64,000 nucleotides of DNA from Blastocatellia bacterium (GCA_963765495.1 CAVXWP010000009.1:576001-640000), one strand, 5' to 3'; shown: positions 31,358-42,036, counted from the first letter of the stretch. The notes: a model not told the origin generated them from the sequence alone. Made by a program: numbers and translations.

Positions 31358-33280
31358 ATGAGCAGGGATTTTCGCTACGGGCGCAACACTAAATCTGACG
31401 AGGCTCCATCCTGGCGCGAACGCATCGCGGCGCTCCGTTATGTGCCGCCGCTAATCCGGCTTGTCTGGCAGACGCATGGCGGCTACACCATCGCGATGGC
31501 TGTGCTGCGGCTGGTTCGCTCGTTTGTGCCCGTGGCCACGCTCTGGATAGGAAAGCTGATCATTGACACGGTAGTCGCGATGCGCGAGTCTCAACCCGAT
31601 TTCCCGCGCCTGTGGCGGCTTGTGGCGCTCGAATTCGCAATCGTGCTTGCAGGTGAAGCTCTGGCTCGCGCCTCCGCGCTTGTCGAAAGTCTGTTGAGCG
31701 ATCTGTTTTCCAATCACACCTCAGTGCGGTTGATGAAGCACGCGGCCACGCTCGATCTTTATCATTTCGAAGACCCGAATTTTTACGACAAGCTCGAACG
31801 GGCGCGCAGGCAAACGACCGGGCGAATCGGATTGCTCGAACAATTGCTTGGCATGGCTCAGGACCTGCTGACGCTCGTCTCGCTCGGGGCCGCCTTATTT
31901 GTCTACAGCCCCTGGCTTCTGTTGCTGCTGGCCGTCGCCGTATTGCCGAGCTTTCTCGGAGAGACGCATTTCGCCTCGCTCGAATATTCGCTGCTCTACA
32001 GGTGGACCCCCGAACGGCGGCAACTCGATTACCTCAGATATATAGGCGCAAGCGATGTGACGGCCAAAGAGGTTCAGCTTTTTGGCCTCGCGCCGTGGCT
32101 TATCGAGCGTTACCGCGTGCTGGCAGATCGTTTTTATGAAGAGAACAAACGGCTCTCGATCCGAAAGAGCATCATCTCGACCGGGCTTTCAATGATAGGA
32201 AGCGCGGGCTACTACGGCGCTTACGTAGTGATCCTTGCGCGCACCGTGCTCGGGAGCATCAGCATAGGTTCGCTGACCTTTCTGGCAGGTTCGTTTTCCA
32301 GGAGCCGCGATCTGATACAGCGGTTGCTGCTCGGCGCAAGCGGCATCTATTATCAAAGCCTCTTCCTCAAAGACCTGTTCGAGTTTTTCGAGATGAGACC
32401 CTCCATCACATCCCCGACCGAGGCAAAGACTTTCCCCGTTCCCGTGCGCGAAGGCTTTCGATTTGAAGATGTGGGCTTTCGCTATCCCGGCAGCGATAAA
32501 TGGGCCGTGCGACACGTGAGTTTTCACCTGCGTCCCGGAGAGCGTATCGCATTCGTAGGCGAGAACGGCGCGGGCAAGACTACGCTCACAAAGTTGCTTG
32601 CCCGGCTCTATGACCCGACCGAGGGGCGTATATTGCTCGATGGAGTTGACCTGCGCGAGTACGATCTGGCATCGCTGCGCCGCAACGTAGGCGTTATCTT
32701 TCAGGACTTCGTTCGTTACGCGATGCGCTTTGATGAAAACATCGGTGTGGGCGAGATAGAAGAGGTGCAGTCATATCTGGACCTGAATAACAACGGAGCA
32801 ACCGTTGATAAAAGGAGCGCATCAGAGGCAGCGAAATTGGAAAGCAGTGAAGTTCCGGAACCTATAGAAGCAGCCGCCGAAAAATCGCTGGCTGCTTCTC
32901 TGTTGCCGCGATTGCCGGAAGGGTACAGGCAGATGCTCGGACGCCGATTCGAAGGCGGCATCGATCTGTCGGGCGGAGAATGGCAGAAGGTGGCGCTTGC
33001 CCGCGCTTACATGCGGGACGCCGAGGTGCTGATACTCGACGAGCCTACGGCGGCGCTCGATGCAAGAGCCGAGTATGAGGTCTTTGTAAGGTTTTCGGAA
33101 CTTGTCGCGGGGCGGATGGCCGTAATCATCTCGCACAGATTTTCGACCGTTCGCATGGCTGATCGCATAATCGTGCTGCACGACGGCAGCATTATCGAAG
33201 ACGGCTCGCACGACGAGCTTGTAAGGCGCGGCGGATTATATGCCGAATTATTTTCCTTACAGGCCGAAGGATACCGCTGA
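31358..33280 (+). CDS. ABC transporter, fused permease/ATP-binding protein
   Basis: TM domain; GENGAGKT, LSGGEWQ, ILDEPT, SHR. Confidence 0.92.
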   Translation: MSRDFRYGRNTKSDEAPSWRERIAALRYVPPLIRLVWQTHGGYTIAMAVLRLVRSFVPVATLWIGKLIIDTVVAMRESQPDFPRLWRLVALEFAIVLAGEALARASALVESLLSDLFSNHTSVRLMKHAATLDLYHFEDPNFYDKLERARRQTTGRIGLLEQLLGMAQDLLTLVSLGAALFVYSPWLLLLLAVAVLPSFLGETHFASLEYSLLYRWTPERRQLDYLRYIGASDVTAKEVQLFGLAPWLIERYRVLADRFYEENKRLSIRKSIISTGLSMIGSAGYYGAYVVILARTVLGSISIGSLTFLAGSFSRSRDLIQRLLLGASGIYYQSLFLKDLFEFFEMRPSITSPTEAKTFPVPVREGFRFEDVGFRYPGSDKWAVRHVSFHLRPGERIAFVGENGAGKTTLTKLLARLYDPTEGRILLDGVDLREYDLASLRRNVGVIFQDFVRYAMRFDENIGVGEIEEVQSYLDLNNNGATVDKRSASEAAKLESSEVPEPIEAAAEKSLAASLLPRLPEGYRQMLGRRFEGGIDLSGGEWQKVALARAYMRDAEVLILDEPTAALDARAEYEVFVRFSELVAGRMAVIISHRFSTVRMADRIIVLHDGSIIEDGSHDELVRRGGLYAELFSLQAEGYR

Positions 33281-33295
33281 TCGGATTTGAAGATT

Positions 33296-33688
33296 ATGAA
33301 GATAAAATTGCTGACGGCTTCTTATATTTTGCTGCTGGCGACGATCATTTATATGGCCGACCACATGAGGTATCAATCTCTATTCTCGATCATCAGGAGC
33401 GTGCCCGGCGCCGATAAGCTCGGCCATTTCCTCCTGATGGGATTGCTCTCTTTCCTTCTCAACGTAAGCCTCGGTTGCCGCTCAATCAGGATTGCCGGAA
33501 AGCTCTTTCTGCTTGGCAGCGTTATTGTGATTGCGCTGGTCACTCTGGAAGAGTTCTCGCAGCTATTTATCCGATACAGGACTTTTGATCTGATCGATCT
33601 GGCAGCCGATTACACTGGCATATGGATATTCGGGCGTCTGGCTCGCCAAGTGATTGAAGGGATGAGGGATGAAAAGGACTCTCAGTGA
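33296..33688 (+). CDS. VanZ-like membrane protein
   Basis: DKLGHF, EEFSQLFI..RTFDLIDLAAD. Confidence 0.75.
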   Translation: MKIKLLTASYILLLATIIYMADHMRYQSLFSIIRSVPGADKLGHFLLMGLLSFLLNVSLGCRSIRIAGKLFLLGSVIVIALVTLEEFSQLFIRYRTFDLIDLAADYTGIWIFGRLARQVIEGMRDEKDSQ

Positions 33689-33772
33689 TTATCTTGATAA
33701 CTGGCAAGCCGCTTTTCACCGAGTTGTTACGCTACAGTCCTTTTCATCCCTCATCCCTCATCCCTCATCCCT
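33658..33772. repeat. AGGGATG heptamer inverted tandem repeat
   Basis: AGGGATGAGGGATGAAAAGGACT ... AGTCCTTTTCATCCCTCATCCCTCATCCC; second copy at 54107-54233. Confidence 0.8.
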
Positions 33773-33773
33773 T

Positions 33774-36275
33774 TTAAGATATTCTGGCGATACGATGAGG
33801 CAATTTCGTGACCTGTCCACGCGATTTCACATTATCCTTTGAGCGATACATCTGCTTATCGGCATTCATCATTAATTCTTCAAAGCTCTGCCCATCGGCA
33901 GGAGCGGTCGCGGCCCCAATGCTGGCTGTCACAGATATTTGTTCATCTTCGGAGATTGTCAGAAAGGGTCGGTTTATCGCCGCTTGAAGCCGGTTGATCA
34001 CATAAAGAGCCTGCTGTTGATCGGTCATCGGCATCAGGGTTACGAATTCATCTCCGGCATAGCGCGCCACCACATCGCAATCGCGCAATTGATGGCGAAG
34101 CAGTTGAGCGAAGTCTTGCAGTACGCGGTCACCCACCACGTGCCCAAAGGTATCGTTGACGCGTTTGAAATCGTTGAGGTCAATCAAGAGAATCGAGAGC
34201 GGATGATTCGACCGATTCGCAGAGCTGATTTCCCGCTCGAAATGCAGCGCGAAGGCGCGCATATTCGGCAAGCCAGTGAGCGCATCGGTGAGCGCCGTCT
34301 GCTGGGTATTTTCAAAGAGCACGGCATTATGCAGCGCGTCAGATACGGGTTGCATAATCATTTCGAGCAATCGCAGATGCTCATCCGTGTACTGCGGCGT
34401 ATCGACAGAATAAAGCGCCACGGCTCCAAGCGATTCGCCATCCTTTATTACCGGAAAGACCGCCACTCCCTTAAATCGTTCGGCCGTCTCCACGCCCAGA
34501 AACGTAAGGTCCAGCATCGGGCTTGTATTGTAGAGAGGACGGTGATTGGCTATGACCCACCCGGTCACCCCTTCGCCTACGCCAATCTCGCGTTCCCGAA
34601 ACATCTCCATACACAGGCCGCTCGCATACTTGGCTCGAATCCGGGTCTTGCCCGCATCCAGCAGATAAATCACGCAGGTCGAATAAGGCACGAGATTGGC
34701 AATGCGGCTGGTGATTATCGCAAACGCATCCTGTAAGCTGAGCGTGCTGCTCAATACCCGGGCTATGTCGTGCAGCGTAGCCACTTCCTGATGAGCGGCG
34801 GCGATCCGGCTCAACGCGACTTCGCTCAGGGGTCTCTGTTCTTCCGCGTATCCGGCGGCCGGTACCGAATTGTTCCCGGCAAGGGCCGAAGACGGCGAAG
34901 ACGAATCAGGCTCCATCACGGCGGCCTGCTCTATTTCAGCATCAAGGCTTTTGAGGCTCTCAAGAAAAATCCTGACCAGCGAAGGATCGAAAAACGACCC
35001 GCTCAGTTTTTCAATCCGGGATATGACCTCGGCGCGGGTCAGCGCCCTGCGATACGGGCGATCCGAATGCAGCGCGTCGAAATGATCTACGAGCGCCAGA
35101 ATCCTCGCCCCGAGCGGTATCTGCTCTCCGCGCAGACCGTCGGGATACCCTGCGCCATCCCATCGCTCGTGATGGGCGCGAACATAGGCCGCGACAGGAA
35201 AATCGAATTTCACGTTCGATAATATCTCTCCCCCGATCACCGTGTGGGTCTTCATCTTTTCGAATTCGTAGGGGGTCAGCTTCCCGGGTTTGTTCAAAAT
35301 GTAGTCGGGCACGCCGAGCTTTCCAATGTCGTGAAGAAGCGAAGCGGCTTCGAGCGCCTGCAACTGTTTCCCGCCCATCCCCATCAACTCGCCCAGCCGC
35401 CGGGCATAAATCTGAACGCGGCGTATGTGCTTGTGCGTTGTCTGATCCTTTGCGTCAATGGCCATCGCGAGCGCCTCAAGCGTAGAGCGGTGCAGTTCAT
35501 TGACCTGATCGAGATGGCGGCGCTCTTCTTCCAGTTTCGCGTGATAGGTCTTGAATGTGTAGTAGATTATCAGCGGCATCGGAAGGGCCAGCACAAGGAC
35601 AAGCAGCGCAGCCTCTAACGAGTATTTTGAGAGCGCGTAGCCGGTCATCCCCGCAGCCGTCGCGCCTGCCAGATAGGTGACGGGTATCCAGGGGAAAGTC
35701 TCTTTCAATGTGGATATAAAACCGGCTGTGCCTACGGCCTTCGAGAATATCGCCGTCAGGCTGATATTGACCGCGTAATGCGTGAGAGCCAGGACCGTCA
35801 AAGGAAATACCAGCAACTCTAAGGAGCGCTGCTCGCCGCCCAGAATCGTATTGCTTTGCAGGTAGCTTTGAACAATCTGATACATGCGGGCCGAGGCAAA
35901 GGCGGAAAGCGCCAGGATCGAGGCATTGATAGCTACATAGATTCGCAGCTTGGCAAGCTTTCGCGCTTCAAAGCCATCGAGCGTGCCAAGCAGGAATGCC
36001 TGATAAGGGCCGAGTATGATCGCAGCCAGGAAAATAACCGACTCCGAAACCGACACCATGGTCTTGGTCGTTCCGGGCAGCCGTATAGGATGAGAGCCCG
36101 TCCACACGGCTACGACGACCGCAAGCCCAAAAAGCAATGCCTGGTCGCGCGCCGATGTGTGTAAGATGTGGTTGAACGACTCAATCAGAATTCCAACGGC
36201 CAGTGTAATCAGGGCAAAACATAACAATCTGGCCTTTAGATTCAAATCGCGCAGTTCCTGCACCAGGCGATTCAT
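33774..36275 (-). CDS. Multi-TM sensor + HD-GYP + GAF + GGDEF c-di-GMP enzyme
   Basis: About 6-7 N-terminal hydrophobic segments; LLHDIGK and HHERWDGAGYPDGL; GAF (GVGEGVTGWV); DALTGLPN, RDCD I-site, RYAGDEF; RBS GGAGG. Confidence 0.9.
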   Translation of the reverse strand: MNRLVQELRDLNLKARLLCFALITLAVGILIESFNHILHTSARDQALLFGLAVVVAVWTGSHPIRLPGTTKTMVSVSESVIFLAAIILGPYQAFLLGTLDGFEARKLAKLRIYVAINASILALSAFASARMYQIVQSYLQSNTILGGEQRSLELLVFPLTVLALTHYAVNISLTAIFSKAVGTAGFISTLKETFPWIPVTYLAGATAAGMTGYALSKYSLEAALLVLVLALPMPLIIYYTFKTYHAKLEEERRHLDQVNELHRSTLEALAMAIDAKDQTTHKHIRRVQIYARRLGELMGMGGKQLQALEAASLLHDIGKLGVPDYILNKPGKLTPYEFEKMKTHTVIGGEILSNVKFDFPVAAYVRAHHERWDGAGYPDGLRGEQIPLGARILALVDHFDALHSDRPYRRALTRAEVISRIEKLSGSFFDPSLVRIFLESLKSLDAEIEQAAVMEPDSSSPSSALAGNNSVPAAGYAEEQRPLSEVALSRIAAAHQEVATLHDIARVLSSTLSLQDAFAIITSRIANLVPYSTCVIYLLDAGKTRIRAKYASGLCMEMFREREIGVGEGVTGWVIANHRPLYNTSPMLDLTFLGVETAERFKGVAVFPVIKDGESLGAVALYSVDTPQYTDEHLRLLEMIMQPVSDALHNAVLFENTQQTALTDALTGLPNMRAFALHFEREISSANRSNHPLSILLIDLNDFKRVNDTFGHVVGDRVLQDFAQLLRHQLRDCDVVARYAGDEFVTLMPMTDQQQALYVINRLQAAINRPFLTISEDEQISVTASIGAATAPADGQSFEELMMNADKQMYRSKDNVKSRGQVTKLPHRIARIS

Positions 36276-36329
36276 ATATTGCCTCCATCCGCTCGATAGA
36301 AGGGGTTATTGGCTAAATCGAAATGCACA

Positions 36330-36491
36330 AGATTGGTACAAACGAAACTCCAAAGTAGGGTGAGTAGAAATAGACCACGGATTTACGCGGATGCGGCGGA
36401 TTTACGCGGATCAGTCCCTATTTGATCTAATCCGCGCTAATCCGCCGCCTATTTCAATTTGCCTTTCATTCAAATTCATTTGTACCAATCT
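36330..36491. repeat. CGGAT array enclosed by a 13-bp inverted repeat
   Basis: AGATTGGTACAAA (36330-36342) / TTTGTACCAATCT (36479-36491) around CCACGGATTTACGCGGATGCGGCGGATTTACGCGGAT. Confidence 0.7.
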
Positions 36492-36504
36492 CTTGCGGAA
36501 TGAT

Positions 36505-38592
36505 TTAAAGCCGGGGCCTTGGATAAAGGGCGTGTGACGAGTTGGGCACGACCGAGGCCGATACACCTGAGAACCCTTCACCCAGGGTCAATACACCAGC
36601 AGCCATTCCCACAGACGAACTCTGATCCAGCAATTTCGCCGACCAGACCGCCTCGTCGGCCCACTGACTGCTCGCCCGTAATTGATCGAGAACCAGAGAA
36701 TCCGAAACGCTCCCCGCAATCATCACTCCGCCTGCGATCATCACTCCGCCTGCGATCATCACTCCGCCTGCGATCATCACCCCGCTGGCGAGCATGTTTC
36801 TGTTCGCAAGAATCATACCAACATATGGCACCAGGCGCAGCCCTATGATCAGGTAGTTTGTATCGAGAACATAAAACAACCCAGCCGAACGGTGCAGGAA
36901 TACTATGCCGTCCGAATATATGCAATCCCCCCAACTCACGGTCTCGCCCGCTATGGCGCTCTGAAATTCAAACTGCGAATTGACCGGGCCTATGAGGTTC
37001 CTGCCGGAGAGCAGAACCTGAGACCCCCAGATTCTTGCAGGTGTAGATGCGATCTGACTCGCCACTCGAAGAGCCCCCTCCGCATTCAACAGCCCCGCGC
37101 CTTCGCTCACGAGCGCGAGCGTGAACGGCTCAGGGGCAAGCGAAGCGAGTCGCTGCGCCGAAAAGCGGAGCACGGCTTTGACCGTTCGTGGAGTAAGCGA
37201 TGGATTGGCTTGCAGCATGAGCGCGACCACGCCTGAGACTGCGGGCGCGGCGACCGAGGTTCCGCTCATTCTGAAATAGACCGCCCGCCCGCTTTCCGAA
37301 TAGACGACCGCTTCGGGATGATCGCGCACAAGCGCAGAATCGGGGGCGCACGTCGCTACGATGTAATTGGCGGGCGCGAGGAGGTCAGGCTTTGCAAACC
37401 CGTCAACGAGCGTGGGGCCGCGCGAGCTATAACTTGCCACCACATCATCGGATCGGACATCGGACCCCTGAGTTGCGGCAGCGCCGACGGTTATAACATT
37501 GGGTGAGTTGGCGGGCGAAAGTATCGAACCATACAGTGTATTGCCCGCATTGTCTTTGCCGAAATTCCCCGCCGCTACGACCACGACAACGCCCGAGGAG
37601 ACCGCGGCTTCGGCGGCCTGACACAAGGGATCGTTTGCGTAAGAATCGGTTACGAGAGTACCTACAGAGAGGTTCGCAACGCGGATGTTATATGCCTGCC
37701 GGTTGGCGACTACCCATCCGAGGGCCATTATCGAATCGCTGACGCGGCCCGTGCCGTCGCCCTTGATCACTCGCAGGTCGAGCAGGTTGGCGTTGAAGGC
37801 CATGCCGGGATAGGCCGCGCCCGCACCCGTCATCCGCATGGAATCGACTCCGGTCCCGGCTGCCACACCGGCAACGTGAGTCCCGTGGCCGTAAGGGTCA
37901 TACCCGTTTTGCAATTGCTCCGGGGTCAACTGCTCGTCGGATACGAAATTTCTGCGGTATGTGATGCGGCTGGCGCTCGGATTGGTCAGGGATCGCAAGT
38001 CGTTGTGAATAGAATCTCCGCTAAAGATTCCGCTGTCGAGCACGGCGATACTTATGCCTGAGCCATTGACGCCCGCCCCTTGAATGTACCCGGTCTGCTG
38101 GATCACGGGCGAGCCTCCACTCAACCCGTTCGTGCCTATCACCTGCGAGGCTCCCGATGTGGTGATAAAATGAAGAGGGCCGCCCGTCTGCGCCTCGGTG
38201 GTAAAGGTAACCGAATCGGGCGACATATAGAGCGCGCTATTGCTTTCAGCGACAGGGGCCAGTGAATTGGCAGGGACCTCTGCCACCACCGCATCAATCA
38301 AGTCAAGATAGCCAAGCGGGCTGCCGCCCCGGGCGACGATCTCGTTTTGCAGGTCGTTTATCATGCCCTTTTGAGCGCGAACTATAACGCGAACCGGTTT
38401 GTCGTCCTTAGAGGGGTTGCGCGCAAGGCTGACAAGTTCAGGCGAAAGGCGGGAAGCATAGCCAGGGCCGCCGCTCTCCCTTTGCACATACGCGGACGAG
38501 GGTCGGGCAAAAGTGAGATTGAGCAGCGAAAAAAGGACCAGACACATCGAGAGAAGCCGTAAGCGGTTTCTAAAAGTTTGGCGGTTAATCAT
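36505..38592 (-). CDS. Secreted S8 (subtilisin-like) serine peptidase with C-terminal GVMIAG tandem repeats
   Basis: Signal peptide, prodomain; triad VLDSG / HGTHVAG / SGTSVAAP, oxyanion AAGN; (GVMIAG)x4; RBS GGAGG. Confidence 0.92.
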   Translation of the reverse strand: MINRQTFRNRLRLLSMCLVLFSLLNLTFARPSSAYVQRESGGPGYASRLSPELVSLARNPSKDDKPVRVIVRAQKGMINDLQNEIVARGGSPLGYLDLIDAVVAEVPANSLAPVAESNSALYMSPDSVTFTTEAQTGGPLHFITTSGASQVIGTNGLSGGSPVIQQTGYIQGAGVNGSGISIAVLDSGIFSGDSIHNDLRSLTNPSASRITYRRNFVSDEQLTPEQLQNGYDPYGHGTHVAGVAAGTGVDSMRMTGAGAAYPGMAFNANLLDLRVIKGDGTGRVSDSIMALGWVVANRQAYNIRVANLSVGTLVTDSYANDPLCQAAEAAVSSGVVVVVAAGNFGKDNAGNTLYGSILSPANSPNVITVGAAATQGSDVRSDDVVASYSSRGPTLVDGFAKPDLLAPANYIVATCAPDSALVRDHPEAVVYSESGRAVYFRMSGTSVAAPAVSGVVALMLQANPSLTPRTVKAVLRFSAQRLASLAPEPFTLALVSEGAGLLNAEGALRVASQIASTPARIWGSQVLLSGRNLIGPVNSQFEFQSAIAGETVSWGDCIYSDGIVFLHRSAGLFYVLDTNYLIIGLRLVPYVGMILANRNMLASGVMIAGGVMIAGGVMIAGGVMIAGSVSDSLVLDQLRASSQWADEAVWSAKLLDQSSSVGMAAGVLTLGEGFSGVSASVVPNSSHALYPRPRL
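36714..36785 (-). repeat. 18-bp coding tandem repeat, about 4 units, encoding GVMIAG
   Basis: GCGATCATCACTCCGCCT units on the + strand. Confidence 0.9.
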
Positions 38593-38719
38593 GGTTTCCT
38601 CCGATCAAGAAAACTTCTGGTCCGTGAGGTGAACGAAAGCTTCCCTAAACAAAAAGGATTCAACACCAATAGGCATGAAGTGAAGATGGTCCTGGCGGAG
38701 GTAAGGCGTAAACTGTGAC

Positions 38720-38818
38720 CTTCACTTCGGCAGTCGGGCCGCCTATTTGAATTCTCAAGGAGGCTCCGGCTTTGCGCCCATATCTTCTTAATCGAAGCGG
38801 TTGCCTTTATCGGTGAAG
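38720..38818 (-). ncRNA. Cyclic di-GMP-I (GEMM-I) riboswitch, predicted
   Basis: Minus strand CTTCACCGATAAAGGCAACC...GGGCGCAAAGCCGGAGCCT...AGGCGGCCCGACTGCCGAAGTGAAG has the GGCAA / GGGCGCAAAGCC / GGCGGC..GACTGCCGA hallmarks and P1 pairing; about 130 nt upstream of the S8 gene in a c-di-GMP enzyme locus; P2 loop atypical. Confidence 0.75.
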
Positions 38819-39006
38819 TAAATCCGTAAACATTCCCGGAAAAGATCATACTCTGCGGCTATCTGGTAAAGCCAAAAACGATAGCCGGATGGATTCTACG
38901 CCCGCGCCCTCGAAAGTGTCAAGATTTTTCAAGAAATTAAAGTAAGATCGCATACACCCCGAAATGGAATCATTCAGTTTTCCAAAATGTAAGATAGGGG
39001 AATAGA

Positions 39007-39107
39007 AATAGGCTGCGGATCGGACGTATCGGACGGATTTTCACGGACTAGCTTATATAGTGTCTGACCCGTGTTTATCCGTCCGATCCGCGTAATCCGT
39101 GGCCTGC
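39007..39107. repeat. CGGAT 9-mer inverted tandem repeat
   Basis: AATAGGCTGCGGATCGGACGTATCGGACGGATTTTCACGGA ... CCGTGTTTATCCGTCCGATCCGCGTAATCCGTGGCCT. Confidence 0.75.
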
Positions 39108-39143
39108 TATAACGGTTTGCGATTGCGTTTAGCTGTATAGGGA

Positions 39144-40478
39144 TCAGGAATCGGCAATAACGGATTCCGCGACATAGCTACGCACATCGCGCGGCCAAAT
39201 TACCGTAAAGGTGGAGCCGTGACCGGGCGCGCTTGCCACCTTGATCCTGCCGCCCAATAACTCGACAAGCCTCTTGCTTATGGGAAGCCCCAACCCCGTG
39301 CCTCCTGTGTGATGAGGACTTCCTACATTGATCTGTCGGAACTCTTCAAAGATGAGAGGCACCTGTTCCTCCTGCATGCCTATGCCCGTATCGCTGACCT
39401 CGACATACCACATCTGATCGCCGTCGGGACCGGCCTTGAGAGTGACTGTGCCGCCCGCGGGAGTGAACTTGATGGCGTTGGATGAAAGGTTGGTAATGAC
39501 CTGTGTGACTTTGGTTGCGTCGCTCATGACAGAGCGCATGTGGGGCTCGACTTCGTAGGCGAAAATCACGTCCTTGTCTTTTGCGGTCTGGTTCAACCCG
39601 TTGTAGATCGAGTCAATCAACTCGGCGGGTTCGAATGACTCAAGCTTTATCTGCATGCGACCGGCCTGGAGCCGCGAAAGATCGAGCAGATCATTCACGA
39701 GTCTGACAAGCATCGCGGTAGATTTTTCAAGCCGCGCCACGGTATCGTGCTGGCGCGGCGTGAGCGGCTCTGCCCTGTCGCGCAGCAACACCTGCACCAG
39801 ACCGAGAATCGCATTTAGCGGCGTTCTGACTTCGTGCGCGATTGTAGAGATAAACTGTGATTTGATCTCGTCTACCTGTTTGAGTTGCTGGTTGGCCTGA
39901 TGAAGCTCGCGATTTATCTGTTCAAGTTCGTGGCGGCTCTGGGTCAACTCGCCGAGTACACCCACAAGCTCCTGATTTTGAGATTGAAGCTCTTCGACCA
40001 TCCCCGATTCGCTTGCCGAAAAGAACTCCTTGCGAATCTGTTCCAGGTCTTTGAGCTGTCGCTGATCTGGAGCGAACCACTTTATAGCCTGAATGCGCGT
40101 GCCGCGCCCGGGCGCGCTCGCTATATAAAACTCATCCATTAACCGGCGTGAGCCGGTGAGCCCTTTGCCCAGTCCCGTTCGCGATTTAAACTCACCGGCC
40201 ATGATCTTATCGAGATCCTTTATGCCCGGTCCCTGGTCTTCACATACTATCTCTATGCCTTTGCGCCCGACCCTCTCGATCAATGAAACGGTAATGCTCC
40301 CCATGCCCGCATATTCGTAGATGTTTCGCGTCAGTTCCGATATTGCGGTCGTGAGCTTTATCTGCGTAACGTTATCGAATCCGAGTTCGCGGGCCGCAAG
40401 CCTGACGCGGTCGCGCACGCGCACTATGTCTGATTCACGGCGAACGAAAATCGAACCGATCTTTTCACGGCGCGACAT
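39144..40478 (-). CDS. RsbT-like HATPase domain fused to a coiled coil and histidine kinase (stressosome output kinase)
   Basis: N-terminal TAISELTRNI..DQGPG..GLGKGL; AHEVRTPL H-box, NAIKFT, DTGIG, GTGLGL. Confidence 0.85.
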   Translation of the reverse strand: MSRREKIGSIFVRRESDIVRVRDRVRLAARELGFDNVTQIKLTTAISELTRNIYEYAGMGSITVSLIERVGRKGIEIVCEDQGPGIKDLDKIMAGEFKSRTGLGKGLTGSRRLMDEFYIASAPGRGTRIQAIKWFAPDQRQLKDLEQIRKEFFSASESGMVEELQSQNQELVGVLGELTQSRHELEQINRELHQANQQLKQVDEIKSQFISTIAHEVRTPLNAILGLVQVLLRDRAEPLTPRQHDTVARLEKSTAMLVRLVNDLLDLSRLQAGRMQIKLESFEPAELIDSIYNGLNQTAKDKDVIFAYEVEPHMRSVMSDATKVTQVITNLSSNAIKFTPAGGTVTLKAGPDGDQMWYVEVSDTGIGMQEEQVPLIFEEFRQINVGSPHHTGGTGLGLPISKRLVELLGGRIKVASAPGHGSTFTVIWPRDVRSYVAESVIADS

Positions 40479-40507
40479 ATCTGGGGCTGAATCGTGCAAT
40501 TCCGAGG

Positions 40508-41560
40508 TCAAAAGCTTAATCTCCCGCAAAGTATTGTCGCATCATCTTTCGGGCGATTGAAATCGCGCATCACAACCGAGCATATAAGCTGCGGGTGAAG
40601 CCCGAGCAGACCGGGGTAATTCTCAGGGTCCCAGTTTTCCGATATGCCGTCTGTCGTCATCACAATGGTGGCGACTCTTGGCAGTTGCTCTTTGAAAACC
40701 TTGATGCGGTTCAAACGGGAACCGAGCGTGCCGTTGAGCGAGATAAACCTTAAAGGGCGAGGGCCGCCATAGACCCGGAAATCGGTATTGCCTATTCCGG
40801 CATACTCTACGACGCCGGTCGCGCGGTCAATTGCGGCGAGCCCGAGGACCGCGCCACGGGTTTCGCGCAAGGCTTCGTGAGTGGTCTGAATTATAGTCTC
40901 GACCGGTTGCAAAGCCTGTCTGTCAATCACAGCCACGGCCTCTGTGGATGCCTCTTTTGCCCCCGCGCCGTGACCAAGTCCGTCTATGACGGCCAGAATC
41001 TGGCGATCACCTTTTCGGTTGATGATGTAGGAATCGCCGTTATCTTCCGCTCCATCGACCGGGCGGGAAAATGCGCCCCACAGCGATTGCTTTCTGGCGG
41101 AGAGTTCGCCATCGACCGGCAGGTGTTTGCGGATTACTATGACCGTGCCGTGAGTCGTGCGCCCGTATAGCGGGAGGCGGCGGGTCTGGCTCGCGATGGT
41201 AGAGTAAATATAGAACTCATCCATCATGCGCTTTATAGCCCCAAGCCCCGCGCCAAGTGTGCCTGTAGTCGTAAAGCCATCCGAGATTGCGAGCGCCGTA
41301 TCGGGTATTCCAGGCCCCTTATCAGCGTAGATCAATTCAAGCCCCGCATGTTCGAGCCGGGCGGTGGTTTCAGCAACAAAAATCCTGCCCGTACCGCGCG
41401 CGAACTTTACTGCGTTCGAGCCGATCTCTTTCACCGCTATATCTATTTCAGCGATCCTTTGCTCACCGAACTGCATATCTGTGGCGCGCCGCCGGATGAT
41501 CCTCCGGGCGTGACCTATGTGCGCTTCTTCGGTGAGCGGTATTGTCTCGTATTTTTTCAT
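40508..41560 (-). CDS. HATPase + SpoIIE/PP2C phosphatase (RsbX-like)
   Basis: KEIGSNAVK, DKGPG, GTLGAGLG; NGD, IDGLGHG, TTDGI, DDAT. Confidence 0.85.
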   Translation of the reverse strand: MKKYETIPLTEEAHIGHARRIIRRRATDMQFGEQRIAEIDIAVKEIGSNAVKFARGTGRIFVAETTARLEHAGLELIYADKGPGIPDTALAISDGFTTTGTLGAGLGAIKRMMDEFYIYSTIASQTRRLPLYGRTTHGTVIVIRKHLPVDGELSARKQSLWGAFSRPVDGAEDNGDSYIINRKGDRQILAVIDGLGHGAGAKEASTEAVAVIDRQALQPVETIIQTTHEALRETRGAVLGLAAIDRATGVVEYAGIGNTDFRVYGGPRPLRFISLNGTLGSRLNRIKVFKEQLPRVATIVMTTDGISENWDPENYPGLLGLHPQLICSVVMRDFNRPKDDATILCGRLSF

Positions 41561-41565
41561 GAAAT

Positions 41566-41630
41566 TATGAGTTTTGAATTTTGAGTTACAGGAGTTTAAT
41601 TCAAAACTCAAAACTTAAAATTCAAAACTG
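41566..41630. repeat. TTTTGAG heptamer inverted repeat inside the rsb operon
   Basis: GAGTTTTGAATTTTGAGTT ... AATTCAAAACTCAAAACTTAAAATTCAAAA. Confidence 0.8.
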
Positions 41631-41631
41631 A

Positions 41632-42036
41632 TTAAAGCCATTTGGTTATTATCACGGTAGTTCCCTTGCCTGCTTCGGATTCAATCTTGAAATCATCAAC
41701 CAGCCGGCGCGAGCCGGGAAGCCCTTTGCCAAGACCCCGGCTCGTGGTGTAGCCGTCTGTCATCGCCAGATTGATGTCGGATATACCCGGTCCCTGATCG
41801 CTAAAACTCACCTGCAACCCTCGGCGGCTCCCGTCTCTGACCCGGGTTACTTCCACGTGGCCGCGTTCGGCATAGAGCCTTATGTTGCGGGCCAGTTCGC
41901 TTGCAGCCGTCACCAGTCGGACCTGATCCACCTGATTGAATCCCAATCGAATCGCTGCGTCCCGCACGAGTGCGCGGACTCTAACCAGATCGTCATTTGT
42001 TTCTACGGATACTCGGTTAGCTTCCGGCTGCTGCAT
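41632..42036 (-). CDS. rsbT: Stressosome Ser/Thr kinase RsbT
   Basis: TAASELARNI, DQGPGI, TDGYTTSRGLGKGLPGSRRLVD. Confidence 0.9.
   Translation of the reverse strand: MQQPEANRVSVETNDDLVRVRALVRDAAIRLGFNQVDQVRLVTAASELARNIRLYAERGHVEVTRVRDGSRRGLQVSFSDQGPGISDINLAMTDGYTTSRGLGKGLPGSRRLVDDFKIESEAGKGTTVIITKWL

Follow-up and report, generated by a model that had tools for sequence, protein, structure and literature searches.

We analyzed a locus in a 64,000-nt stretch of the genome of a Blastocatellia bacterium (GCA_963765495.1, CAVXWP010000009.1:576001-640000), which we refer to in full length as the window; positions are counted from its first nucleotide, and features lie on the minus strand unless otherwise stated. 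Between 33774 and 38922 the locus comprises, in this order, a promoter, a GEMM-I-like RNA, a gene for a peptidase of family S8, a 229-nt gap, and a gene for a membrane protein. The best explanation of the sequence data is that the window holds one copy of a two-gene signaling cassette common in Acidobacteriota, with two components: (i) a predicted secreted pro-subtilisin whose C-terminal extension carries identical short peptides in tandem, here four copies of GVMIAG; and (ii) a putative membrane sensor with a MASE9-like seven-transmembrane (7TM) input domain. We consider it highly probable that the repeat-tailed S8 protease and the 7TM sensor work together. Whether the protease would supply the sensor's input through its repeat tail is a narrower matter, and we give about an even chance to the tail being the sensor's cue. 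An earlier reading of this DNA, made from the sequence alone (hereafter the original prediction), had named the RNA, the protease, and the membrane receptor as three co-oriented elements, and all three are in place on the same strand.

The S8 gene (36505-38592) encodes a 695-aa protein that matches Peptidase_S8 (PF00082; E = 4.9e-49; 167.6 bits, cut-off 21.8) and carries the catalytic triad D186/H236/S445 in DSG, HGTH, and GTS motifs. The triad is intact in 29 of 29 paired S8 proteins, and the N-terminus is signal-peptide-like by sequence, as expected of the secreted subtilase with an intact triad that had been proposed. A structure model from an 86-sequence alignment had a mean pLDDT (predicted local distance difference test) of 82.2; it superseded an earlier model from 13 sequences, which was unusable (mean pLDDT 46.5). 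The best Foldseek match of this model, over the protease body only, was pro-Tk-SP (3afg_A; E = 6e-29), a pro-subtilisin with an N-terminal propeptide. Named relatives come from Acidobacteriota, class Blastocatellia, Pyrinomonadaceae among them, and are annotated merely as 'S8 family peptidase' or 'serine protease AprX'. The full tail is rare: only about 30 clusters among 5.8 billion proteins carry it, and a library at 50% identity held two full-length tail representatives plus fragments.

The receptor gene (33774-36275) encodes an 833-aa protein with seven hydrophobic segments within residues 1-250, followed by an HD-GYP phosphodiesterase domain (HD_5, residues 268-433; 34977-35474; 132.7 bits, E = 1.5e-38), a GAF domain (residues 512-649; 34329-34742; GAF_2, E = 1e-14), and a GGDEF domain (residues 661-817; 33825-34295; E = 2.4e-44). 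This agrees with the domain order, and with the six or seven membrane segments, that had been read from the sequence beforehand. The HD-GYP motifs HDIGK, HHERWD, and GAGYP are present and are invariant in nine of nine orthologues. At the GGDEF site the sequence is AGDEF; LIDLNDFKRVND is intact, and an RxxD motif lies upstream. AGDEF variants can be active. The 7TM domain (residues 1-255; 35511-36275), aligned over 29 paired sensors, conserves P67, an acidic residue inside a membrane segment, G89, W196, P232, and Y244. Judged from sequence, it has short outer loops and no periplasmic domain. In a protein-atlas feature search with the 7TM domain, MASE9 clusters ranked first with a score of 0.94, which we treat as a lead only. 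The Pfam MASE9 model (PF20972, cut-off 24.3 bits) gave no match in four of four N-terminal domains at E up to 10, and its best score in paralogous sensors was 21.7 bits (one of 20), under the cut-off. The 7TM domain also occurs in short open reading frames (ORFs) of about 255-290 aa, apparently without an output domain (e.g., G049:C110, G324:C108, G076:C94, and G247:C7).

The pairing of the two genes recurs: we examined 44 cassettes in 31 genomes across Acidobacteriota. Twelve orthologous S8 loci were found in 10 relatives, nine of them with a full receptor of about 830-845 aa directly downstream. At one of these nine, L048 (G022 C15), the receptor seems to be split, its 7TM part lying in a separate overlapping 154-aa ORF, possibly through a frameshift or an assembly error. 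When the 7TM domain alone served as the query, it gave 133 matches in 29 of 41 relatives' genomes, many of them just downstream of paralogous S8 genes. In five well-assembled genomes with complete S8 maps, a comparison of coordinates by eye placed an S8 gene immediately before 8 of 17 7TM genes in the same orientation, and a profile search of the window's genome did so for 2 of 7; by a rough estimate, chance would produce this adjacency for under 1% of genes. In 20 paralogous cassettes, chosen for coincident S8 and 7TM coordinates, the distance from S8 stop to sensor start was -47 to +153 nt in 18 and about 900 nt in the other two. In some cassettes the next gene after S8 encodes a protein of 257-325 aa with weak GNAT-type similarity at its C-terminus (L075:2978-3751 in G000 C5, L076:2386-3363 in G000 C1, and L060:3412-4308). 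In two cassettes it occupies the gap of about 900 nt before the sensor, and in a third case it comes after an otherwise unpaired S8 gene. The two copies from G000 share 50% identity, and the window's cassette has none.

Across the phylum, the 7TM-domain profile had matches in 79 of the 301 genomes sampled, spread over 60 of 186 genera, a tally that includes genome G087, which is flagged unpublished and on which no other claim rests. We took 20 hits from other families of the phylum, outside the window's class, one per genome, picked by their 7TM match with upstream content not known beforehand. An S8 gene lay directly upstream, on the same strand, in 13 of them. These picks favored long ORFs with at least 3 kb of upstream sequence, and G285, G087, G241, G282, G201, G324, G247, and others were left unsampled.

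The two genes have also diverged together. Over 29 cassettes, identity of the S8 catalytic domain correlates with identity of the 7TM domain (r = 0.86, a value reached in none of 2000 permutations), and nearest neighbors agree between the two proteins in 19 of the 29; the cassettes were therefore inherited and duplicated as units. These results bear on an alternative in which a riboswitch-controlled protease gene lies beside a c-di-GMP (cyclic di-GMP) gene by chance and the repeat is recent, functionless slippage. Such a neighborhood would suit the 97% identity of the DNA repeat in the window and the REP-like (repetitive extragenic palindrome-like) element with a strong hairpin between the genes. 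It is contradicted by the recurrence of the pairing, with genes overlapping or near-touching, by the co-divergence of the cassettes, and by the age of the orthologues' arrays at synonymous sites (see below), and we regard it as hardly credible.

The output domains of the sensor vary. The 20 paralogous sensors have HD-GYP-GAF-GGDEF outputs (11), (PAS)-GGDEF-EAL outputs (6), or a PAS-HisKA-HATPase-REC hybrid kinase (3), and the output of the other cassette in the window's genome is HD-GYP-GAF alone. Because the 7TM domain is constant while the output varies, the protease is tied to the sensor domain and not to c-di-GMP as such. The window's genome has 13 S8 genes, of which five carry arrays; two of these five are paired with a sensor, against none of the eight without an array. 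The original prediction had proposed scoring repeat-tailed S8 genes for adjacency to multi-transmembrane HD-GYP, GGDEF, or kinase genes. The outcome was strongly positive across paralogues, genera, and families, and linkage is conserved with three or four kinds of output domain, where an absence of conserved linkage would have spoken against that prediction.

We then considered the tail itself. The repeat-array region spans residues 582-638 (36679-36849), as delimited by Tandem Repeats Finder (TRF), a codon table, and pLDDT. Its perfect (GVMIAG)x4 run, already recognized in the original prediction, corresponds to an 18-bp tandem repeat at 36719-36785 (TRF; 3.7 copies, 97% matches). In-register degenerate hexamers, YVGMIL and ANRNML, precede the run, so that VGMILA, which the prediction had listed as a degenerate unit, is acceptable as one; AGVLTLG, listed beside it, belongs instead to the conserved C-terminal segment past the array. 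That segment (residues 640-695; 36508-36675) is defined by an alignment of 13 orthologues, follows the pattern W..W-x-x-x-L-L-D-Q-S ... G-E-x-x-x-G ... H-x-L-x-P-R, and has eight residues invariant in all 13 (W650, L654, D656, G671, G676, H687, L689, and P691). We looked for a PEP-CTERM or similar sorting signal at the end of the tail and rejected it, as no hydrophobic helix and basic tail follow the motif.

Arrays are a general property of the paired proteases, whereas the units differ. Within the window's orthologous group, each of the 13 S8 proteins carries period-6 repeats in the equivalent position, between a conserved beta-rich segment and the conserved C-terminal segment ending in H-x-L-x-P-R, and each has a different unit (GVMIAG, GVMVIG, GVVITG, GVMVVG, DGRMM[VT], DSRVLT, RLLASG, TDGRLL, and others). 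The units are seven residues long in one orthologue (GWIMGGT, about ten copies) and 12 residues long in another. Near-perfect arrays are present in 20 of 20 paired paralogous S8 genes, with units AEGMTL, AEGLTL, AEGIVL, AEGITL, AEGLVM, SEGIAL, SDGVLV, SDGFLL, ADGHLL, GDGVVI, and AGDGVI. Here the unit is specific to each paralogous cassette and is kept across genera (AEGMTL in g9 and g5; AEGLTL in g10 and g11). The 13 paired S8 genes from outside the class carry Trp-containing units (TLVWGN, TIVWGN, SIIWGD, IIVWGE, QVIWTD, GIFWTD, and GIGWSD), in arrays that are clear in 12 and weak or degenerate in one. In several of these arrays optional spacers of 1-6 residues separate fixed cores, as in QVIWTD with or without DDVRSN, IIVWGE with or without AAKD, and TIVWGN with or without one to four residues. 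A role of the array as a membrane helix was rejected: only clade-A units are uncharged, whereas D and R occur in each of the clade-B units.

Comparison of units within each array indicates what has been preserved. Over 29 arrays, the proportion of differing sites between units was 0.65 for synonymous sites (pS) and 0.09 for nonsynonymous sites (pN), with an overall pN/pS of 0.14; because units were chosen by peptide similarity, pN is biased downward, and the high pS is the informative part. In arrays of six to eight identical peptides, pS reached 0.77 (GLTLAE x8), 0.79 (GMTLAE x6), 0.57 (GVIAGD x6), and 0.67 (TDGRLL x6). Synonymous sites are thus near saturation while the peptides are identical, and it follows that the units are old and that every residue has been held constant. 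On this codon evidence the array units are kept constant by selection on the peptide. In the structure model, pLDDT was 29-45 in the array, compared with 78-90 in the preceding domain and 84-96 in the following C-terminal segment, which suggests that the array is exposed and lies between two parts that are folded or docked.

A tail of this kind might instead be structural, as a short beta-solenoid, a spacer, or an envelope anchor of a large S8 subfamily, with the sensor reading proteolysis products or the state of the membrane. The pairing would then couple extracellular protein degradation to c-di-GMP or kinase signaling. Several observations agree with such a tail. Three of the five repeat-tailed S8 genes in the window's genome have no sensor beside them, and the units of some orthologues (L046 and L050-L053) are degenerate and keep the pattern only. 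The Blastocatellia units bear a loose resemblance to the hexapeptide beta-helix consensus [LIV]-[GAED]-x-x-[STAV]-x, and the tails give weak, sub-threshold matches to LbH-family models; Hexapep (PF00132, cut-off 27 bits) scores 16.7 bits for the window tail and 23.3 bits for P0013. A search of PDB sequences with the tail profile returned nothing significant, and four of the five best matches, all non-significant, were beta-helix proteins.

Other observations do not sit well with a structural tail. Every residue of the unit is constant despite near-saturated synonymous sites, and to our knowledge beta-helices do not require such constancy. The spacers and 7-residue units fit a regular solenoid poorly, and strict period six does not hold in relatives. 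The array was not modeled as a fold, no Pfam cut-off was reached, and the cassette-specific units kept across genera also speak against such a tail. We therefore hold a structural tail, with the coupling to protein degradation that it implies, to be possible but doubtful; selection on the units, the unstructured model, and the arrays with 7-mers or spacers agree better with a role as peptides than with a rigid structural repeat. The tail profile also matches long unrelated repeat proteins (P0002, P0017, and P0045), for example a 2071-aa (DARLGSEGRLGQ)n protein. Since these match through the repeat segment alone, repeat-only matches are no evidence of kinship.

If the tail does serve as the cue, the cassette could operate as follows. 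The exposed array would be cut into short hydrophobic peptides, by the S8 protease itself or by another protease, or it would be presented intact; the 7TM domain would then sense the array or its peptides inside the membrane. In the window copy the response would be a change in c-di-GMP turnover, through the HD-GYP phosphodiesterase, the GAF domain, and the AGDEF cyclase domain. The release of free short peptides from the tail is the bolder sub-case, which we consider somewhat unlikely. Equally tentative is a fuller scheme, in which a fused precursor-protease sheds signal peptides of 6-12 residues outside the cytoplasm, the cognate MASE9-like 7TM sensor encoded next to it detects them in the membrane and relays the signal to c-di-GMP enzymes or a histidine kinase, and several cassettes of one genome form orthogonal channels, each with a unit sequence of its own.

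Signal flow could also run in the opposite direction, in the manner of LapD-LapG, with the receptor sensing cytoplasmic c-di-GMP through a GGDEF I-site or the GAF domain and holding or releasing the tail-tethered protease. The encoding of a c-di-GMP-related inner-membrane protein beside an exported protease is what this arrangement would look like. The GGDEF site is intact in four of four clade-A receptors and degenerate in five of five clade-B receptors, four of which keep RxxD, as for a domain that binds c-di-GMP rather than making it. However, S8 genes are also paired with this 7TM domain in sensors that end in a hybrid histidine kinase (3 of 20) or in GGDEF-EAL (6 of 20), and outside-in signaling is the norm there. 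Moreover, the short outer loops leave no periplasmic domain able to hold a protease, and the HD-GYP motifs are catalytically intact in nine of nine receptors. Since kinases and intact phosphodiesterases are among the outputs, it is more natural to suppose that the signal travels inward from the cell exterior, and we consider control from the inside improbable.

In the window, the cassette is preceded by a regulatory leader. A sigma-70-like promoter, TTGACA-N18-TAGAAT (38893-38922), matches the consensus at 11 of 12 positions, and the TTGACAC...TA[GC]AAT blocks are kept in four of four clade-A leaders. Downstream lies a divergent GEMM-I (c-di-GMP-I)-like aptamer (38719-38818) with the closing helix CUUCAC/GUGAAG. 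It matches RF01051 over the full model (38726-38815; model positions 1-87) with 29.2 bits, at permissive settings, compared with a curated gathering score of 35 bits; E is 0.0052 in a search of 3.1 kb and 0.0029 in a search of the whole genome. No Rfam family reached its gathering score anywhere in the 64-kb window. The three other closest orthologues have matches at the equivalent leader position, to RF01051 in L006 (31.2 bits) and L007 (28.6 bits) and to RF03167 in L008 (27.1 bits), and for this reason we take the window match to be more than chance. The GEMM-I-like RNA of the original prediction is thus upheld as a full-length match that is kept in orthologous leaders, but as a divergent one that scores under the family threshold.

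All three RF01051 core blocks (AAAGG..., ...CGCAAAGC..., and ...CUGCCGAA) align to the consensus at high posterior probability and are invariant across the four leaders; we take these blocks to be the ones that hold the ligand-contacting nucleotides of the c-di-GMP-I aptamer. Flanks that are likewise invariant in the four leaders, CUUCACCGA...GCCGAAGUGAAGG, are able to close the aptamer. MAFFT alignments of the aptamers left differing stems out of register, and each sequence was therefore folded separately, with no column-based count of covariation. The P1 hairpin is paired in all seven related sequences, which use four different helix sequences, although few of the sequences are independent. 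P2 forms in the G023, G006, and G012 leaders, and the window copy has non-standard pairs or mismatches there. The window P1 loop is GAUUAA, with no GNRA motif, where G023 and G006 have GAAA. In the expression platform (38593-38718), RNAfold pairs GAAGUGAAGG alternatively with the downstream CCAUCUUCACUUC and predicts a weak hairpin with a U-tract ahead of a GGAGGA ribosome-binding site. G023, G006, and G012 have a strong hairpin and U-run between aptamer and start codon, of which the window has a weaker version.

The operon would in this way be additionally under a divergent GEMM-I riboswitch with a transcription attenuator, and c-di-GMP would gate production of the protease together with an enzyme that alters c-di-GMP. 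We put the chance that the window aptamer still binds c-di-GMP at a little over one half. A regular-expression scan found the aptamer core in 4 of 33 cassette leaders, all from the window's orthologous group, and given this restriction we regard c-di-GMP feedback as a local addition and not as the core of the system. The feedback circuit of the original prediction accordingly keeps its leader, conserved within the group, but loses its central place, and the quorum-sensing-like character that the prediction gave to the circuit is supported by no result. The window's genome (G000) has three more GEMM-I-like leaders, L001 (C15), L002 (C10), and L003 (C12), with 35.3, 33.5, and 32.6 bits. Their 5' half is the same as in the window's group, with a clean P1 hairpin and GNRA loops, and their P2 region is interrupted by a GGGATGA heptamer array that matches one beyond the receptor stop codon. 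An ORF follows each of these leaders, and two of the three ORFs begin like secreted proteins.

The two genes stand further apart in the window than elsewhere, with a gap of 229 nt compared with 36-58 nt in the three closest orthologues. The difference is due to insertion of a dispersed REP-like element (36371-36460), which is palindromic and CGGAT-rich, folds into a hairpin of -46 kcal/mol, and gives 128 BLAST hits on 16 contigs of the genome. As a consequence, co-transcription is less certain in the window's genome than in the orthologues. A second, related sequence rich in CGGAT, with 15 hits, is located around 39010-39110, upstream of the promoter.

A number of observations weigh against a partnership in which the tail acts as the sensor's cue. 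Pairing is incomplete: a sensor is missing at 3 of the 12 orthologous S8 loci, an S8 gene is missing upstream of 7 of the 20 out-of-class sensors, and five of the seven sensors in the window's genome are unpaired, as are the three array-bearing S8 genes mentioned above. On the side of the array, the degenerate units of some orthologues and the loose beta-helix fit count here as well, and the low pLDDT may stem from misalignment of the repeats and not from disorder. Tail cleavage, peptide release, and binding by the sensor would be putative steps, and a signal made once per protease molecule would be an unusual design. For the window copy in particular, the aptamer, which lies below the Rfam cut-off, is more degenerate than the other three (P1 z = -1.5, P2 mismatches, and no GNRA loop), and the strong REP-like hairpin separates the two genes.

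The surroundings of the cassette were also surveyed. Upstream on the same strand, at 39144-42036, lies a partner-switching-like cluster (an HATPase_c_2 protein, an HATPase_c_2-SpoIIE phosphatase, and an HATPase_c_2-HisKA-HATPase kinase). Its synteny is kept at the three closest orthologous loci, with identities of 64-72%. On the other side, a VanZ-like gene and an ABC-transporter ATPase/permease gene (31358-33688, plus strand) are convergent with the receptor gene and are not conserved beside orthologous cassettes. Heptamer arrays, TCATCCC x4 (33744-33772) and AGGGATG x2 (33658-33672), lie just past the receptor stop codon.

We compared the cassette with known systems, and found no description of an S8-7TM pairing in the literature searched, which did not extend to paper supplements. 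This agrees with the original prediction, to which no characterized system of this architecture was known. The parts are of known kinds, and their pairing appears to be undescribed. The cassette has tandem identical core peptides that appear to be under peptide-level selection, as a multi-copy precursor of a pheromone or of a peptide resembling RiPPs (ribosomally synthesized and post-translationally modified peptides) would. In the Rap-Phr (RRNPPA) systems of Bacillota, tandem pheromone propeptides are matured by extracellular proteases (Felipe-Ruiz et al. 2024, PMC11343458). Those systems resemble the cassette in having several short-peptide copies per exported precursor, a receptor gene that adjoins the precursor, and families that diversify into many specificities. 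They differ in that the Phr precursor is a separate small gene, whereas here the array is part of the protease, the putative receptor is a 7TM membrane sensor, the host is diderm, and release is only inferred. The Rap receptor is a cytoplasmic TPR protein that the peptide reaches after import.

Yeast alpha-factor, Kex2, and Ste2 offer a second parallel: tandem identical peptides in a precursor, processing by an S8-family protease, and a seven-helix membrane receptor. The cassette likewise combines tandem peptides, an S8 protease, and a seven-helix membrane protein. The yeast system, however, is eukaryotic, uses dibasic spacers, keeps precursor and protease separate, and has a G-protein-coupled receptor unrelated to MASE domains. 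By this comparison, neither Rap-Phr nor alpha-factor/Kex2/Ste2 appears to have a precursor fused to the protease or a MASE-type sensor. Plant BURP-domain cyclases and fungal borosins are enzyme-fused precursors with repeated core peptides, and thus share with the cassette the placement of core peptides on the same polypeptide as the processing enzyme, with processing putative in the cassette. They belong to other enzyme classes and to eukaryotes, and they yield modified natural products rather than ligands for an adjacent receptor.

On the sensor side, MASE9-HD-GYP-GAF-GGDEF proteins have been described, and ligand binding by MASE9 within the membrane has been proposed, with no ligand named (Galperin and Chou, bioRxiv 10.1101/2021.11.05.467447). 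Their domain order equals that of the window receptor; they differ in that the window receptor does not reach the Pfam MASE9 model and in that no protease partner is given for them in that text, where the word 'protease' does not occur. In LapD-LapG, the likeness lies in an inner-membrane c-di-GMP protein and an exported protease that are encoded together. There, the protease, LapG, is of the cysteine type, its partner LapD includes a periplasmic domain and degenerate GGDEF-EAL domains, and flow is inside-out. The window locus has an S8 protease, a 7TM domain with short loops, an HD-GYP-GAF-GGDEF output, and relatives with kinase outputs, and falls outside that class. For the leader, the zmpI gene of Clostridioides difficile is a known case of a GEMM-I aptamer and attenuator ahead of a secreted protease gene, the same order of elements as here. 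Unlike in that case, the window aptamer is under the Rfam cut-off and without a GNRA loop, and the operon also encodes a c-di-GMP phosphodiesterase/cyclase.

Bacterial c-di-GMP and kinase signaling makes frequent use of membrane-embedded MASE sensor domains, whose ligands are essentially unknown. The conserved partnership of an S8 array protein with a 7TM sensor provides a concrete ligand hypothesis for a MASE-type domain, and the window copy illustrates how a riboswitch may be added atop such a cassette, closing a c-di-GMP loop. If the hypothesis is true, MASE-type domains would have their first class of ligand, and a diderm phylum would have a native form of peptide communication. The finding points to possible peptide-based signaling in Acidobacteriota, an abundant but poorly studied phylum of soil bacteria.

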